The translations under genes were made by a program, and so were the position numbers. The notes below the pieces were generated by a model. That model was not told the origin of the DNA. It made no database searches and saw nothing but the letters and a program-made list of their open reading frames with translations. 64,000 nt of DNA from assembly GCF_058153355.1 (NCBI RefSeq), contig NZ_CM177019.1. One strand, 5' to 3'. Shown piece by piece: positions 54,719 through 61,904 of this stretch. Within the stretch, counting starts at the first letter, position 1. Every line of letters begins with the position of its first letter.

Positions 54719-56854
54719 TTGCTTAATCCGATCGTTCGTAAATTCCAGTACGGCCAACACACCGTGACTCTGGAAACCGGCATGATGGCGCGTCAAGCCA
54801 CTGCCGCTGTTATGGTTAGCATGGATGACACCGCGGTATTCGTTACCGTTGTCGGCCAGAAAAAAGCCAAACCAGGTCAGGACTTCTTCCCGCTGACCGT
54901 TAACTATCAGGAGCGTACCTACGCTGCTGGTCGTATCCCGGGTAGCTTCTTCCGTCGTGAAGGCCGCCCAAGCGAAGGCGAAACGCTGATCGCGCGTCTG
55001 ATTGACCGCCCGATTCGCCCGCTGTTCCCGGAAGGTTTCGTCAACGAAGTTCAGGTTATCGCCACCGTGGTTTCTGTTAACCCGCAGGTTAACCCGGATA
55101 TCGTCGCGATGATTGGTGCTTCTGCGGCGCTGTCTCTGTCTGGTATTCCGTTCAATGGTCCGATTGGTGCTGCCCGCGTAGGTTACATCAATGACCAGTA
55201 CGTACTGAACCCGACTCAGGACGAGCTGAAAGAGAGCAAACTGGACCTGGTTGTTGCCGGTACAGAAGCTGCCGTGCTGATGGTTGAATCTGAAGCTGAA
55301 CTGCTGAGCGAAGACCAGATGCTGGGCGCAGTGGTGTTCGGTCATGAACAACAGCAGGTTGTTATTCAGAACATCAATGAACTGGTGAAAGAAGCCGGTA
55401 AACCGCGTTGGGATTGGCAGCCGGAGCCGGTAAACGAAGCGCTGAACGCGCGCGTTGCTGCGCTGGCTGAAGCTCGTCTGAGCGATGCTTATCGCATCAC
55501 CGACAAACAAGAGCGTTATGCGCAGGTTGATGTCATCAAATCTGAAACCATCGCGACGCTGCTTGCTGAAGACGAAACCCTGGACGAAAACGAACTGGGT
55601 GAAATTCTGCACGCTATCGAGAAAAATGTTGTTCGTAGCCGCGTACTGGCAGGCGAACCGCGTATCGACGGTCGTGAAAAAGATATGATCCGTGGTCTGG
55701 ATGTGCGTACTGGCGTGCTGCCGCGTACTCACGGTTCTGCGTTGTTCACCCGTGGTGAAACGCAGGCACTGGTTACCGCAACGCTGGGTACTGCACGTGA
55801 CGCACAGGTTCTTGATGAACTGATGGGCGAACGTACTGACACCTTCCTGTTCCACTACAACTTCCCTCCGTACTCCGTAGGCGAAACCGGCATGGTCGGT
55901 TCTCCGAAACGTCGTGAAATTGGTCACGGTCGTCTGGCGAAGCGCGGTGTGCTGGCAGTCATGCCGGATATGGACAAATTCCCGTACACCGTACGTGTTG
56001 TGTCTGAAATCACCGAATCCAACGGTTCCTCTTCTATGGCTTCCGTGTGCGGCGCGTCTCTGGCGCTGATGGACGCAGGTGTGCCAATCAAAGCTGCTGT
56101 TGCGGGTATCGCAATGGGTCTGGTGAAAGAAGGCGACAACTACGTTGTACTGTCTGACATTTTGGGCGACGAAGATCACCTGGGCGATATGGACTTCAAA
56201 GTTGCGGGTTCCCGCGACGGTATCTCTGCATTGCAGATGGATATCAAAATTGAAGGTATCACCAAAGAGATCATGCAGGTTGCGCTGAACCAGGCTAAAG
56301 GTGCGCGTCTGCATATCCTGGGCGTAATGGAACAGGCGATCAACGCGCCGCGTGGCGATATCTCTGAGTTCGCACCGCGTATCCATACCATCAAGATCAA
56401 CCCGGACAAGATCAAAGACGTTATCGGTAAAGGCGGTTCTGTTATCCGTGCTCTGACCGAAGAAACTGGCACCACCATCGAAATCGAAGATGACGGTACT
56501 GTGAAAATCGCAGCGACCGACGGCGAGAAAGCGAAACATGCTATTCGTCGTATCGAAGAAATCACCGCAGAAATCGAAGTAGGCCGCGTCTACAATGGTA
56601 AAGTGACTCGTATCGTTGACTTTGGCGCATTTGTTGCCATCGGCGGCGGTAAAGAAGGTCTGGTGCACATCTCTCAAATCGCTGACAAACGTGTTGAGAA
56701 AGTGACCGACTACCTGCAGATGGGTCAGGAAGTACCGGTGAAAGTTCTGGAAGTTGATCGCCAGGGCCGTATCCGTCTGAGCATTAAAGAAGCGACTGAG
56801 CAGTCTCAACCTGCTGCAGCACCGGAAGCTCCGGCTGCAGAACAGGGCGAGTAA
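54719..56854 (+). CDS. pnp: Polynucleotide phosphorylase
   Basis: ORF 54632..56854; conserved N-terminus (M)[20 protein letters not shown] starts at TTG 54719, preceded by GAAAGG Shine-Dalgarno; two RNase PH domains, KH and S1; 711 aa. Confidence 0.9.
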
Positions 56855-56962
56855 GGTTGCCATTTGCCCTCCGCTGCGGCGGGGGGCTTTTAACCGGGCA
56901 GGACGCCTTGTTAGCAACCGGGAACAGGACGTTCATTCAACCGTGGTCTTCGGGAGTGGGAA

Positions 56963-57847
56963 ATGAAGCCTTTTTTGCGCTGGTGTTTCGTTGCGACAGC
57001 ACTTACGCTTGCAGGATGCAGTAATACTTCCTGGCGTAAAAGTGAAGTCCTCGCGGTACCATTGCAACCGACTTTACAGCAGGAAGTGATTCTGGCACGT
57101 ATGGAACAAATCCTTGCCAGTCGGGCTTTAACCGATGACGAACGCGCACAGCTTTTATATGAGCGCGGAGTGTTGTATGATAGTCTCGGTCTGAGGGCAT
57201 TAGCGCGTAACGATTTTTCGCAAGCGCTGGCAATCCGACCGGATATGCCGGAAGTATTCAATTACTTAGGCATATATTTAACGCAGGCAGGCAATTTTGA
57301 TGCTGCCTATGAAGCGTTTGATTCTGTACTTGAGCTTGATCCAACTTACAACTACGCGCACTTGAATCGCGGGATCGCATTATATTACGGCGGTCGTGAC
57401 AAGTTAGCGCAAGATGATCTGCTGGCGTTTTATCAAGACGATCCCAATGATCCTTTCCGTAGTCTGTGGCTTTATCTCGCCGAGCAGAAGCTCGATGAGA
57501 AGCAGGCTAAAGAAGTGTTAAAACAGCACTTCGAAAAATCGGATAAGGAACAGTGGGGATGGAACATTGTCGAGTTCTACCTGGGCAACATTAGCGAACA
57601 AACGTTAATGGAAAGGCTCAAGGCGGACGCAACGGATAACACCTCGCTCGCTGAGCATCTCAGTGAAACCAACTTCTATTTAGGTAAGTACTACCTAAGT
57701 CTGGGGGATTTGGACAGCGCCACGGCACTGTTCAAACTGGCGGTTGCCAACAACGTTCATAACTTTGTTGAGCACCGATACGCATTGTTGGAATTATCGC
57801 TCCTGGGCCAGGACCAAGATGACCTGGCAGAATCGGACCAGCAATAG
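56963..57847 (+). CDS. nlpI: TPR-repeat outer-membrane lipoprotein NlpI
   Basis: 294-aa ORF with lipoprotein signal (…LTLAGCSN…) and TPR repeats. Confidence 0.9.
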
Positions 57848-57953
57848 CTGACGTACACATCAGCCCGTAATCTTTTTTGATTGCCATCACCTTAACGGGT
57901 GAGGGCGTTGTTGTTCGTTAATACACCTACTTTGAGCCGGTTCACACTTTTCA

Positions 57954-58034
57954 ATGAAAATTGCTGATCAATTTCATGATGAGTTATGTAGACTGGCCGC
58001 CATTAATTTTGAGGCACACGTACTACATGGCTGA
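57954..58034 (+). CDS. yrbN: Small ORF (26 aa) in the deaD leader, overlapping the deaD start codon
   Basis: ATG 57954 … TGA 58032-58034 encodes [26 protein letters not shown], consistent with the small protein YrbN as I recall it; below the ORF-track size cutoff. Confidence 0.5.
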
Positions 58035-59916
58035 ATTCGAAACCACTTTTGCAGATCTGGGCCTGAAGGCTCCTATCCTTGAAGCCCTTAACGATCTGGG
58101 TTACGAAAAACCATCTCCAATTCAGGCAGAGTGTATTCCACATCTGCTGAATGGCCGCGACGTTCTGGGTATGGCCCAGACGGGGAGCGGAAAAACTGCA
58201 GCATTCTCTTTACCTCTGCTGCAAAATCTTGATCCTGAGCTGAAAGCACCACAGATTCTGGTGCTGGCACCGACCCGCGAACTGGCGGTACAGGTTGCTG
58301 AGGCAATGACGGATTTCTCTAAACACATGCGCGGCGTAAACGTGGTTGCCCTGTACGGCGGCCAGCGTTATGACGTGCAATTACGCGCCCTGCGTCAGGG
58401 GCCGCAGATCGTTGTCGGTACTCCAGGCCGTCTGCTGGACCACCTGAAACGTGGCACTCTGGACCTCTCTAAACTGAGCGGTCTGGTTCTGGATGAAGCT
58501 GACGAAATGCTGCGCATGGGCTTCATCGAAGACGTTGAAACCATTATGGCGCAGATCCCGGAAGGTCATCAGACCGCTCTGTTCTCTGCAACTATGCCGG
58601 AAGCGATTCGTCGTATTACCCGCCGCTTTATGAAAGAGCCGCAGGAAGTGCGCATTCAGTCCAGCGTGACTACCCGTCCTGACATCAGCCAGAGCTACTG
58701 GACTGTGTGGGGGATGCGTAAAAACGAAGCACTGGTACGTTTCCTGGAAGCGGAAGATTTTGATGCGGCGATTATCTTCGTTCGTACCAAAAACGCGACT
58801 TTGGAAGTGGCAGAAGCTCTTGAGCGTAACGGCTACAACAGCGCTGCACTGAACGGTGACATGAACCAGGCGCTGCGTGAGCAGACGCTGGAACGCCTGA
58901 AAGATGGTCGTCTGGATATCCTGATTGCGACCGACGTTGCGGCCCGTGGCCTGGACGTTGAGCGTATCAGCCTGGTAGTTAACTACGATATCCCGATGGA
59001 TTCTGAGTCTTACGTTCACCGTATTGGTCGTACCGGCCGTGCGGGGCGTGCTGGTCGTGCGCTGCTGTTCGTTGAGAACCGCGAGCGTCGTCTGCTGCGC
59101 AACATTGAACGCACTATGAAGCTGACCATTCCGGAAGTAGAACTGCCGAACGCAGAGCTGCTGGGCAAACGCCGTCTGGAAAAATTCGCCGCTAAAGTAC
59201 AGCAGCAGCTGGAAAGCAGCGATCTGGATCAATACCGTGCACTGCTGAGCAAAATTCAGCCGACTGCAGAAGGTGAAGAGCTGGATCTCGAAACTCTGGC
59301 AGCCGCACTGCTGAAAATGGCACAGGGTGAACGTACTCTGATCGTGCCGCCAGATGCGCCGATGCGTCCGAAACGTGAATTCCGCGACCGTGACGACCGT
59401 GGTCCGCGCGATCGTAACGACCGTGGCCCGCGTGGCGACCGTGAAGATCGTCCGCGTCGTGAACGTCGTGATGTTGGCGATATGCAGCTGTACCGTATTG
59501 AAGTGGGCCGCGATGATGGTGTTGAAGTTCGTCATATCGTTGGCGCGATTGCTAACGAAGGCGACATCAGCAGCCGTTACATCGGTAATATCAAGCTGTT
59601 TGCTTCTCACTCCACCATCGAACTGCCGAAAGGTATGCCGGGTGAAGTGCTGCAACACTTTACGCGTACTCGCATTCTTAACAAGCCGATGAACATGCAG
59701 TTGCTGGGCGATGCACAGCCGCATACTGGTGGTGAGCGTCGTGGCGGTGGTCGTGGTTTCGGTGGCGAACGTCGTGAAGGCGGTCGTAACTTCAGCGGTG
59801 AACGCCGTGAAGGTGGTCGTGGTGATGGTCGTCGTTTTAGCGGCGAACGTCGTGAAGGCCGCGCACCGCGCCGTGATGACTCTACCGGTCGTCGTCGTTT
59901 CGGTGGTGATGCGTAA
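58027..59916 (+). CDS. deaD: Cold-shock DEAD-box RNA helicase
   Basis: ORF 57961..59916; conserved start [21 protein letters not shown] at ATG 58027; motifs [25 protein letters not shown]; Arg/Gly-rich C-terminal tail; 629 aa. Confidence 0.9.
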
Positions 59917-59941
59917 TCATCGCTGATTAGCGAACACAATC

Positions 59942-59959
59942 TGTAAAATAATATATACA
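59942..59959. promoter_or_regulatory. TyrR box (TGTAAA-N6-TATACA) upstream of mtr
   Basis: TGTAAAATAATATATACA read directly; mtr is a TyrR-regulated gene. Confidence 0.55.
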
Positions 59960-59990
59960 GCCCCGATTTTAACCATCGGGGCTTTTTTTC
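59958..59990 (+). terminator. deaD rho-independent terminator
   Basis: AGCCCCGAT-TTTAACC-ATCGGGGCT followed by TTTTTTT. Confidence 0.8.
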
Positions 59991-59998
59991 TGTCTTTT

Positions 59999-60018
59999 GT
60001 ACTCGTGTACTGGTACAG
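59999..60018. promoter_or_regulatory. TrpR operator-like palindrome in the mtr promoter
   Basis: GTACTCGTGTACTGGTACAG (trp operator-like GTACT…GTAC half-sites) about 50 bp upstream of the mtr ATG. Confidence 0.6.
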
Positions 60019-60069
60019 TGCAATACATAACAACGTAGTCGCACTATTTTTCACTGGAGAGAAGCCCAC

Positions 60070-61314
60070 ATGGCAACACTAACCACCACCCAAACGTCAC
60101 CGTCGCTGCTTGGCGGCGTGGTGATTATCGGCGGCACCATTATTGGCGCAGGGATGTTTTCTCTGCCAGTGGTCATGTCCGGTGCGTGGTTCTTCTGGTC
60201 AATGGCGGCGCTGATCTTTACCTGGTTTTGTATGCTGCATTCCGGCTTGATGATTCTGGAAGCTAACCTGAATTACCGAATCGGCTCGAGCTTTGACACC
60301 ATCACCAAAGACTTGCTGGGCAAAGGCTGGAACGTGGTCAACGGCATATCCATTGCCTTTGTGCTCTATATCCTGACCTATGCCTATATTTCTGCCAGTG
60401 GTTCGATTCTGCATCACACCTTTGCAGAGATGTCGCTGAATGTCCCGGCACGGGCGGCGGGATTTGGTTTTGCACTGTTGGTGGCGTTCGTGGTGTGGTT
60501 GAGCACTAAAGCCGTCAGCCGGATGACGGCGATTGTACTTGGGGCGAAAGTTATTACCTTCTTCCTCACTTTCGGCAGTTTGCTGGGGCATGTGCAGCCT
60601 GCGACATTGTTTAACGTCGCGGAAAGCAATGCGTCTTATGCACCGTATCTGTTGATGACCCTGCCGTTCTGTCTGGCCTCATTTGGTTATCACGGTAACG
60701 TGCCGAGCCTGATGAAGTATTACGGCAAAGATCCGAAAACTATCGTGAAATGTCTGGTCTACGGTACGCTGATGGCGCTGGCGCTGTATACCATCTGGTT
60801 GCTGGCGACGATGGGCAACATCCCTCGTCCGGAGTTTATCGGCATCGCCGAGAAGGGCGGTAATATTGATGTGCTGGTACAGGCGTTAAGCGGCGTGCTG
60901 AACAGTCGTAGTCTGGATCTGCTGCTGGTCGTGTTCTCAAACTTTGCGGTAGCGAGTTCGTTCCTCGGTGTTACGCTGGGTTTGTTTGACTATCTGGCAG
61001 ATCTGTTTGGTTTCGATGACTCAGCTGTGGGACGCTTGAAAACGGCACTGTTGACCTTCGCACCGCCTGTTGTGGGTGGTTTGCTGTTCCCGAACGGATT
61101 CCTGTACGCCATTGGTTATGCTGGCTTAGCGGCTACCATCTGGGCGGCAATCGTTCCGGCGCTGCTGGCCCGCGCATCGCGTAAACGCTTTGGCAGCCCG
61201 AAATTCCGTGTCTGGGGCGGCAAGCCGATGATTGCACTGATTCTGGTGTTTGGCGTTGGCAACGCACTGGTGCATATTTTATCGAGCTTTAATTTGCTGC
61301 CGGTGTATCAGTAA
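60070..61314 (+). CDS. mtr: Tryptophan-specific permease
   Basis: 414-aa polytopic [36 protein letters not shown]…. Confidence 0.9.
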
Positions 61315-61322
61315 TTGAACGA

Positions 61323-61347
61323 GCCGGATGAGCAGTTTTCATCCGGC
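61323..61347. terminator. Hairpin between mtr and the convergent 176-aa ORF
   Basis: GCCGGATGA-GCAGTTT-TCATCCGGC; no strong T-run, possibly bidirectional. Confidence 0.5.
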
Positions 61348-61373
61348 AATATTCCATAGTGCGCGCGAGGTAA

Positions 61374-61904
61374 TCAAATATATCCTTGTTTATTATAAAG
61401 TTCTTCGGCAAGTGCTTCCCCATGTTCATCGAAAAATGCATTGGCGATCTTTAAATTATTCTCCTCAGGATTTGCCGTTATCCTGCTACCATTGGAATCA
61501 AATTCGAGCGCGATGGCGATCTCCGACCCCCACCAGTAATCATAAATTAGCGCAAAATTATTTTCCCCTGGCGTAATAAATTTCTCGATGCCTCGCACAC
61601 AGGCCATGAGTGGTATGAAGATTTCATAGCTCTCTGAGAGAAATATATGATCCATCGTGACTATCTGTGTTTCTTTATTAAAGTTGATATGTTCGGCATA
61701 AATATTCTTTTCACTTTCACCAGAATTACAAGCTGCAAGATTGTTAAGCATTTTTGCAGGATCGCCGTACAACCGCTGCTTCTCGATAAACCATGGCAAC
61801 CAGTCGTCATGGTCTTTGATATTTGTTGCTGGTGAATGGAAAAACTTCTCGAGGTTACTCTCGGTAATATGTGTATGAAGAAAAAAGGAAGCCGGTTCAC
61901 TCAT
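61374..61904 (-). CDS. Hypothetical protein (176 aa), no recognisable domain; first gene of the AT-rich islet between mtr and yhbW
   Basis: Uninterrupted ORF in AT-rich DNA with a plausible start context; no signal peptide seen; Trp/Tyr-rich (IYDYWWGSEIAIALEFD). Confidence 0.55.
   Translation of the reverse strand: MSEPASFFLHTHITESNLEKFFHSPATNIKDHDDWLPWFIEKQRLYGDPAKMLNNLAACNSGESEKNIYAEHINFNKETQIVTMDHIFLSESYEIFIPLMACVRGIEKFITPGENNFALIYDYWWGSEIAIALEFDSNGSRITANPEENNLKIANAFFDEHGEALAEELYNKQGYI

Follow-up and report, generated by a model that had tools for sequence, protein, structure and literature searches.

What are the arginine- and glycine-rich repeats at the 3′ end of the deaD gene, how did they come to be periodic, and do they change in length as repeats often do? 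The question arises from a window of 64,000 nucleotides, the whole stretch of DNA analysed here, in which an earlier note had marked positions 59350-59885 as a single repetitive C-terminal tail that probably binds RNA or forms condensates. We find that the observation is real and that its borders were misplaced; the earlier interpretation is broadly right and partly supported, and we infer the tail-specific part of the function.

The gene that carries the repeats is the E. coli cold-shock RNA helicase deaD/csdA. Its coding sequence occupies 58027..59916 on the + strand in the open reading frame listing and specifies 629 amino acids plus a stop, the product starting with MAEFETTF. Over residues 1-629 this product scores 1397.5 bits against the NCBIfam model NF008642 (PRK11634 equivalog), for which the cut-off is 989, and it thus belongs to DeaD/CsdA. 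All five Pfam models matched, in the order DEAD, Helicase_C, DeaD_dimer, DbpA, DeaD_C, exceed their gathering cut-offs (5/5). Among the open reading frames of the window, nlpI lies upstream and mtr downstream of deaD, and the order nlpI-yrbN-deaD-mtr, which is the known context of DeaD, is that of the RefSeq annotation at nine matching E. coli loci. Domain order and synteny are the same as for E. coli K-12 DeaD/CsdA (UniProt P0A9P6; PF12343, PF03880, PF25399; 5GI4, 5GJU, 5B88). In K-12, the identical protein is induced by cold shock and takes part, when the temperature is low, in 50S ribosome assembly and mRNA decay (PMC1616957, PMC3590231).

Around this gene, a consensus scan places a terminator-like hairpin plus T-run 3′ of deaD at 59959..59990 (+), with a 9-bp stem that includes 6 GC pairs and is followed by TTTTTTTCTGT; an Rfam search at the gathering threshold over 56500-61500 returned no match. 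Two further open reading frames over the repeats were considered as separate features, one antisense (59607-60044) and one in the +1 frame (59711-59926); we rejected both as mirror or frameshift images of the deaD repeats.

To delimit the low-complexity sequence, we combined profile matches, solved structures and structure prediction. The DEAD-box helicase core, consisting of two RecA-like domains (amino acids 1-373), is encoded at 58027..59145 (+), with Pfam DEAD at amino acids 30-196 and Helicase_C at 232-340. The dimerization domain follows (amino acids 374-443; 59146..59355, +), matched by Pfam PF25399 DeaD_dimer at 64.7 bits and covered by PDB 5GI4, which reaches amino acid 445. Next comes an Arg/Asp-rich disordered linker (amino acids 445-485; 59359..59481, +) that is 37% arginine and 22% aspartate with a net charge of +4. 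A folded, RRM-like RNA-binding domain (amino acids 481-564; 59467..59718, +) is situated between this linker and the tail and is supported by Pfam DbpA PF03880 (amino acids 489-558, 73.6 bits) and by PDB 5B88. Finally, an Arg/Gly/Glu-rich disordered C-terminal tail (amino acids 563-629; 59713..59913, +) contains about 30% each of arginine and glycine, carries a net charge of +8 and includes four phenylalanines. R, G, E and D together account for about 76% of the tail's residues, and D plus E for 17%.

The low-complexity sequence is therefore not one tail, as the earlier note had it: about 230 nt in the middle of its span (59482-59712) encode the folded DbpA-type RNA-binding domain (PF03880, 5B88). 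Both of the peptides that it quoted are present exactly in the +1 translation of the deaD reading frame; the first, which it placed in the C-terminal tail, actually belongs to the interdomain linker.

Several lines of evidence agree on the disorder of the two segments. The tail has its own Pfam family, PF12343 (DeaD_C), which is named "DeaD helicase C-terminal disordered region"; amino acids 568-629 align to profile positions 1-62 of 62 at 45.6 bits, compared to a cut-off of 23.3, which makes the tail a member. AlphaFold2, run on amino acids 374-629 with a 31-sequence alignment, predicts a beta-alpha-beta-beta-alpha-beta fold for the RNA-binding domain (amino acids ~484-562, pLDDT 79-92), a stretch without secondary structure at amino acids ~434-483 (pLDDT <50), and nothing but coil throughout the tail (amino acids 563-629, pLDDT 36-41). 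The intrinsic disorder that defines PF12343 is thus predicted for this tail, and the prediction agrees with the name of the family and with the gaps between solved structures. The latter cover amino acids 6-210 (5GJU), 218-445 (5GI4) and 481-564 (5B88); they end at the borders of both segments, and linker and tail are absent from all solved DeaD structures.

Each segment has its own repeat. In the linker, Tandem Repeats Finder reports a 24-nt tandem repeat at 59383..59432 (+), encoding the eight-residue unit DRxDRGPR in 2.1 copies (88% matches, score 79), and autocorrelation of the linker protein sequence is significant at lags 3 and 8. The tail contains imperfect tandem repeats of 33 nt, or 11 residues (GGERRxGGRxF), with a third unit of 45 nt, which span 59728..59859 (+) according to Tandem Repeats Finder and a repeat alignment. 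For 59728-59823, the program gives a period of 33 nt with 2.9 copies (74% matches, score 115); a repeat family of three 44-nt copies at 59738, 59771 and 59816 has spacings of 33 and 45 nt. The ~30-nt periodicity described earlier is indeed detectable, although its period is 33 nt with one unit of 45 nt. Likewise, where three GERREGGR-type units had been counted there are four GERR units, at amino acids 569, 580, 591 and 606, with cores at nt 59731, 59764, 59797 and 59842. Embedded in the array are an 18-nt exact direct repeat, GGCGAACGTCGTGAAGGC, with copies at 59764..59781 and 59842..59859 (+; spacing 78 nt), and a 12-nt direct repeat, GGTGGTCGTGGT, with copies at 59746..59757 and 59812..59823 (+; spacing 66 nt). 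The first copy of each forms one breakpoint of a natural deletion described below, of 78 nt and of 66 nt (two units), respectively.

To separate the contributions of protein and DNA to this pattern, we compared it with two kinds of randomization. The protein repeats are genuine and go beyond the effect of composition, because lag-11 identity over amino acids 568-629 is 0.39, compared to 0.21 in composition-preserving residue shuffles (z 3.5). At the nucleotide level, lag-33 identity is 0.51 observed and 0.52 when synonymous codons are resampled according to codon usage in deaD (Arg 58 CGT/20 CGC; Gly 31 GGT/24 GGC; Glu 41 GAA/13 GAG), and 17% of synonymous recodings contain an exact repeat at least as long as the longest one here (18 nt). 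Once the protein repeat and codon bias are taken into account, the nucleotide periodicity holds no further information. We reject recent duplication or gene conversion as its source, since lag-33 identity is at the resampling level and an 18-nt repeat appears in that many recodings. These results carry a lesson of method: the nucleotide periodicity here reflects the protein repeat and codon bias, and should not be taken as a sign of recent duplication.

Comparison with a K-12-like allele points to the same level of constraint. Over the whole gene there are 48 differing sites (2.5%), all of them synonymous; synonymous and nonsynonymous differences number 6 and 0 in the tail, 3 and 0 in the linker, and in a comparison of the C-terminal 229 residues the protein is identical. 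Because 48 synonymous differences stand against 0 nonsynonymous ones, strong purifying selection must act, within the species, on the DeaD amino-acid sequence, low-complexity segments included.

To learn whether the length of these segments varies, we surveyed 5,426 complete E. coli genomes, with allele counts inferred from identity and coverage bands together with allele-specific queries, a procedure that is blind to frameshifts and to indels of less than about 9 nt. One common length is found in about 96% of the genomes, and about 3.6% deviate. Four length alleles affect the tail. The most frequent is an insertion of 12 nt, a tandem duplication of GAAGGxGGTCGT that duplicates EGGR and yields 633 amino acids; it is carried by about 166 genomes, including strains 042 and PCN033, and it looks like one inherited event because its sequence is near-identical across carriers. 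A deletion of 78 nt, between the 18-nt exact repeats GGCGAACGTCGTGAAGGC at 59764 and 59842, removes 26 residues (603 amino acids; 21 genomes). A deletion of 66 nt, between the 12-nt repeats GGTGGTCGTGGT at 59746 and 59812, removes exactly two units (607 amino acids; 3 genomes); the carriers are two O145:H28 strains and 14EC047, and the presence of the allele on two distinct SNP backgrounds points to recurrence. The largest deletion, of 132 nt at 8-nt repeats (GCGTCGTG in the K-12-like background), removes 44 residues (585 amino acids) and occurs in a single genome, that of a urinary isolate. In the linker, an insertion of 18 nt inside the 24-nt repeat duplicates DRGPRG (635 amino acids; 3 genomes).

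All five alleles are in frame and all five keep the terminal RRRFGGDA. Breakpoints fall at short direct repeats (8-18 nt) in four of the five, the fifth being the tandem duplication of 12 nt. Throughout the ~5,425 genomes, deaD length variation of about 9 nt or more is confined to the two low-complexity segments: of two matched control stretches of 165 nt, one from the helicase core (58400-58564) and the other from the RNA-binding domain (59520-59684), neither yielded a genome with <95% identity or <80% coverage. There were also 542 linker matches at 90-95% identity, of which two were sampled and both had normal length. Indels are therefore concentrated in the repeats yet rare, which is ordinary for such sequences. 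The earlier note would have given up its reading had length been uniform across strains and no nucleotide periodicity been detectable; both length variation and periodicity were found, and the predicted expansion and contraction is borne out by five in-frame alleles in the repeats only. The word 'prone' holds in a relative sense, given the single length that prevails.

Beyond the species, the same segments continue to vary. Across Enterobacterales, 62 intact orthologous tails range from 48 to 90 amino acids with 0-5 GERR(E)GG units, and the linker, rich in indels, ranges from 38 to 58 amino acids. Both segments are flanked by conserved motifs (REFRDRDDR...(D/E)M for the linker; RFSGERRE...PRRDD...RRRFG(G)DA for the tail), and their interiors are rich in indels and differ in unit number. 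Klebsiella has three 11-residue units and a 78-residue tail, the length seen in all named K. pneumoniae members examined. Klebsiella tails shorter by exactly 11 and 22 amino acids occur only in Logan/ENA assemblies; these may be assembly collapses and we do not count them as proven natural variants. In more distant orthologues (45-55% identical) the tail is rich in Lys/Arg and lacks the 11-residue unit.

How might linker and tail work? Published work on DeaD provides the frame. DeaD is described there as a stable dimer with the Hera/CshA architecture. Full-length DeaD is reported to bind RNA with a dissociation constant of 0.07 uM, compared to 28 uM for the dimeric core and ~1 uM for the RNA-binding domain on its own, and it is mainly the C-terminal region that anchors RNA (Xu et al. 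2017, in the summary given by PMC11850223). It has been proposed that ATP-independent annealing takes place at the basic C-terminal domain (PMC3590231) and that this domain is a secondary, non-specific RNA-binding site (PMC1616957). Purified DeaD undergoes salt- and concentration-dependent phase separation into liquid-like droplets, and DeaD marks condensates in E. coli cells (PMC12758526). A construct without the C-terminal tail retains enhanced ATPase and unwinding activities, again as summarised in PMC11850223; as far as that summary goes, the tail is therefore not required for catalysis in vitro.

With these data in mind, the explanation that we favor, and consider probable, is that the disordered linker and tail flank the RNA-binding domain and provide a tether plus auxiliary RNA contacts, with the repeats kept at the protein level. 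The Arg/Asp-rich linker, a polyampholyte, would tether the dimerization domain to the RRM-like RNA-binding domain; being nearly neutral (net +4), it could lend that domain both reach and flexibility with respect to the dimeric core of the helicase. The tail, with its net charge of +8, would add non-specific, multivalent electrostatic contacts and Arg/Phe contacts with RNA. Such contacts may raise local RNA affinity, favor strand annealing and supply weak multivalency for DeaD-RNA condensation. RNA binding, annealing and condensation by the repeats themselves are our inference, and they fit what has been published for full-length DeaD.

The same explanation would account for the repeats and their alleles. 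The repeat architecture presumably goes back to ancient internal duplications, of a unit of 11 residues in the tail and of 8 in the linker, and would since have been maintained at the protein level. Written in a narrow codon set (CGT, GGT, GAA), a protein repeat would give nucleotide periodicity as a passive outcome, and the resulting short exact direct repeats would occasionally mediate slippage or deletion, producing the rare in-frame length alleles. We propose that a segment both disordered and modular can tolerate them, and that repeat number is loosely constrained because each unit would contribute additively. Natural alleles without 22-44 of the 67 tail residues occur in otherwise normal clinical isolates. 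Because such isolates exist, DeaD can do without much of its tail in at least some conditions, which makes the tail auxiliary and not essential.

Three other readings of the repeats can be weighed against this explanation. The most serious makes the tail mainly a condensate scaffold, in which the saturation concentration and material state of DeaD-RNA condensates depend on how many GERREGGR units there are, and alleles tune these properties between lineages. Phase separation of purified DeaD and its presence in cellular condensates (PMC12758526) agree with this, as does a tail that is disordered, multivalent, rich in Arg, Gly and Phe and positively charged (net +8); unit number also differs between genera and, in rare cases, within E. 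coli. However, there is no sign of lineage-by-lineage tuning among the E. coli genomes, because about 96% share one length, and the allele of +12 nt has the appearance of a single inherited event. Multivalency is moreover already available without the tail, from dimerization and the RNA-binding domain. We regard this reading as possible and on the whole doubtful; it overlaps with the tether-and-contact explanation and does not exclude it.

The two remaining readings fare much worse. Were the repeats a hypermutable contingency locus, frequent slippage would generate adaptive length or on/off variation of DeaD; in-frame indels confined to the repeats, breakpoints at direct repeats and the occurrence of the -66 nt allele on two SNP backgrounds could all be taken in that sense. 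Yet units as long as 33 nt with no more than 74% matches contrast with the short perfect units of contingency loci, and most of the deviating 3.6% of genomes carry one inherited allele. Such a reading would also sit badly with variants that are all in frame with RRRFGGDA kept, with exact repeats no longer than codon bias predicts and with a strictly conserved amino-acid sequence. Unit length, unit identity and allele frequencies have thus already largely refuted membership in this class, and we consider it highly improbable. Slightly less credible still is the view that extreme amino-acid composition gives rise to the periodicity by chance, with no true repeat behind it. The dominance of four residue types in the tail is the kind of composition that could produce it, and the nucleotide period is indeed fully explained by protein sequence and codon usage. 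But a lag-11 identity of 0.39 is reached at any lag by only 2.3% of the residue shuffles, the 11-residue unit recurs in orthologues with differing copy number, and a dedicated Pfam model matches the tail region.

It seems unlikely to us that the natural length alleles of the tail are other than neutral, that is, that they shift RNA affinity or the condensation threshold and hence cold growth, ribosome assembly or the dormancy and persistence linked to DeaD condensates (reported 2026). The alleles that such a reading would concern are those of the +EGGR clade that includes 042, the loss of 26 residues, the loss of 22 residues that includes O145:H28 outbreak strains, and the loss of 44 residues in the urinary isolate.

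Little of this weighs as discovery, as the parts are already documented: the gene, its domain map, a disordered C-terminal region with its own Pfam family, and the RNA binding and condensates of DeaD are all known. The natural tail-length series is a mildly useful by-product. Its added value, though modest, is that of an allelic series in which the tail changes by +4, -22, -26 and -44 residues and the linker by +6 in an otherwise identical protein. These alleles could serve as ready-made constructs for studying how disordered Arg-rich tails set the RNA affinity and phase behaviour of bacterial DEAD-box helicases.

Set beside known systems, DeaD is closest in architecture to Hera of Thermus thermophilus and CshA of Bacillus, Geobacillus and Staphylococcus, with which it shares the core, the dimerization domain, a flexible linker and an RRM-like RNA-binding domain; in helicases of this type the RNA-binding domain is the main RNA anchor, according to PMC11850223. 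The enterobacterial DeaD lineage, by contrast, is characterised by its Arg/Asp linker repeats and GERREGGR tail. The tails of RhlE1 and RhlE2 of Pseudomonas aeruginosa resemble that of DeaD in being basic, disordered C-terminal extensions, and those of RhlE control RNA binding, unwinding and phase separation and define helicase specificity, as stated in the abstract of PMC11260450. However, RhlE belongs to another helicase subfamily, its sequence is unrelated, and it has neither the dimerization domain nor the RRM-like RNA-binding domain.

A functional analogy can also be drawn to eukaryotic RGG/RG regions such as those of Ded1/DDX3, LAF-1, FUS and nucleolin, which the DeaD tail resembles in being Arg/Gly-rich and disordered with Phe spacers, and in its association with RNA binding and condensation. 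It differs from them by its interleaved acidic residues (17% D+E). By the eukaryotic definition of an RGG/RG motif (tri- or di-RGG, or tri-RG, with spacers of 0-4 residues) the tail falls outside: it has one RGG, three GGR and nine RG/GR dipeptides, with no tri-RGG or tri-RG, and the dipeptides are mostly split by ERRE/NFSGE spacers, leaving at best a single di-RG (RGGGRG). Because it holds only one RGG and three GGR triplets, the tail is not a canonical RGG box. E. coli is not known to have protein arginine methyltransferases of the PRMT type. By analogy, then, the DeaD tail may work like an RGG region without being a member of that class.

Length variation in the DeaD tail occurs within a single serotype, O145:H28. 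The 66-nt in-frame deletion, an allele that lacks two 11-aa repeat units, occurs in two O145:H28 strains, RM12761 (locus L007) and RM13516, but other O145:H28 genomes, for example RM8988-C1 and 12E115 (genome matches H94 and H95), carry the full-length tail; the deletion is therefore recent within the O145:H28 lineage. Among Klebsiella-type DeaD sequences there are three tail lengths, 78, 67 and 56 aa (fragments P0002, P0012 and P0082), with the two shorter forms equal to the 78-aa tail minus exactly one or two 11-aa units. The 78-aa tail is found in all named K. pneumoniae members examined and the 67- and 56-aa tails come from Logan/ENA assemblies; these shorter forms could be assembly collapses.

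The repeats of the window’s deaD can also be read in other frames. An ORF on the plus strand (59711-59926) reads the GERREGGR units in the +1 frame, and this frame supplies the Val-rich tails that terminate many database ‘proteins’ matching the DeaD RNA-binding domain (P0005, P0018, P0027, P0028, P0066, P0067 and others). Public assemblies, some complete genomes among them, often contain frameshifted gene calls at this GC-rich repeat; these may be sequencing errors or real pseudogenes. On the minus strand, opposite the 3′ end of deaD, a Pro/Arg/Ser-rich ORF of 145 aa (59607-60044) was considered as a gene and rejected; it is a reverse-complement reading of the repeats and the intergenic region, with no sign of a gene.

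A scan 3′ of deaD identified a GC-rich hairpin with a 9-bp stem followed by a T-run (59959-59990, plus strand). The hairpin also scored on the minus strand, with a clear T-run after the plus-strand copy only, and it is likely the deaD terminator, lying upstream of mtr (60070-61314). At the other end of the gene, the deaD leader contains the 26-aa small ORF yrbN (57954-58034, plus strand), annotated in every RefSeq E. coli locus retrieved. This ORF overlaps the region of the deaD start codon by 8 nt, an arrangement that suggests that deaD is controlled by translational coupling or by a leader peptide.

The window’s deaD (58027-59916) differs from a K-12-like allele at 48 sites (2.5%), every one of them synonymous. 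With a 661-nt query from the 3′ part of the gene, a match at ≥99% was obtained for just one of the 5,426 complete genomes; the window therefore comes from an uncommon E. coli lineage. That single match is the goat strain R32_14_1F, whose entire deaD differs from the window’s at three positions, all synonymous.
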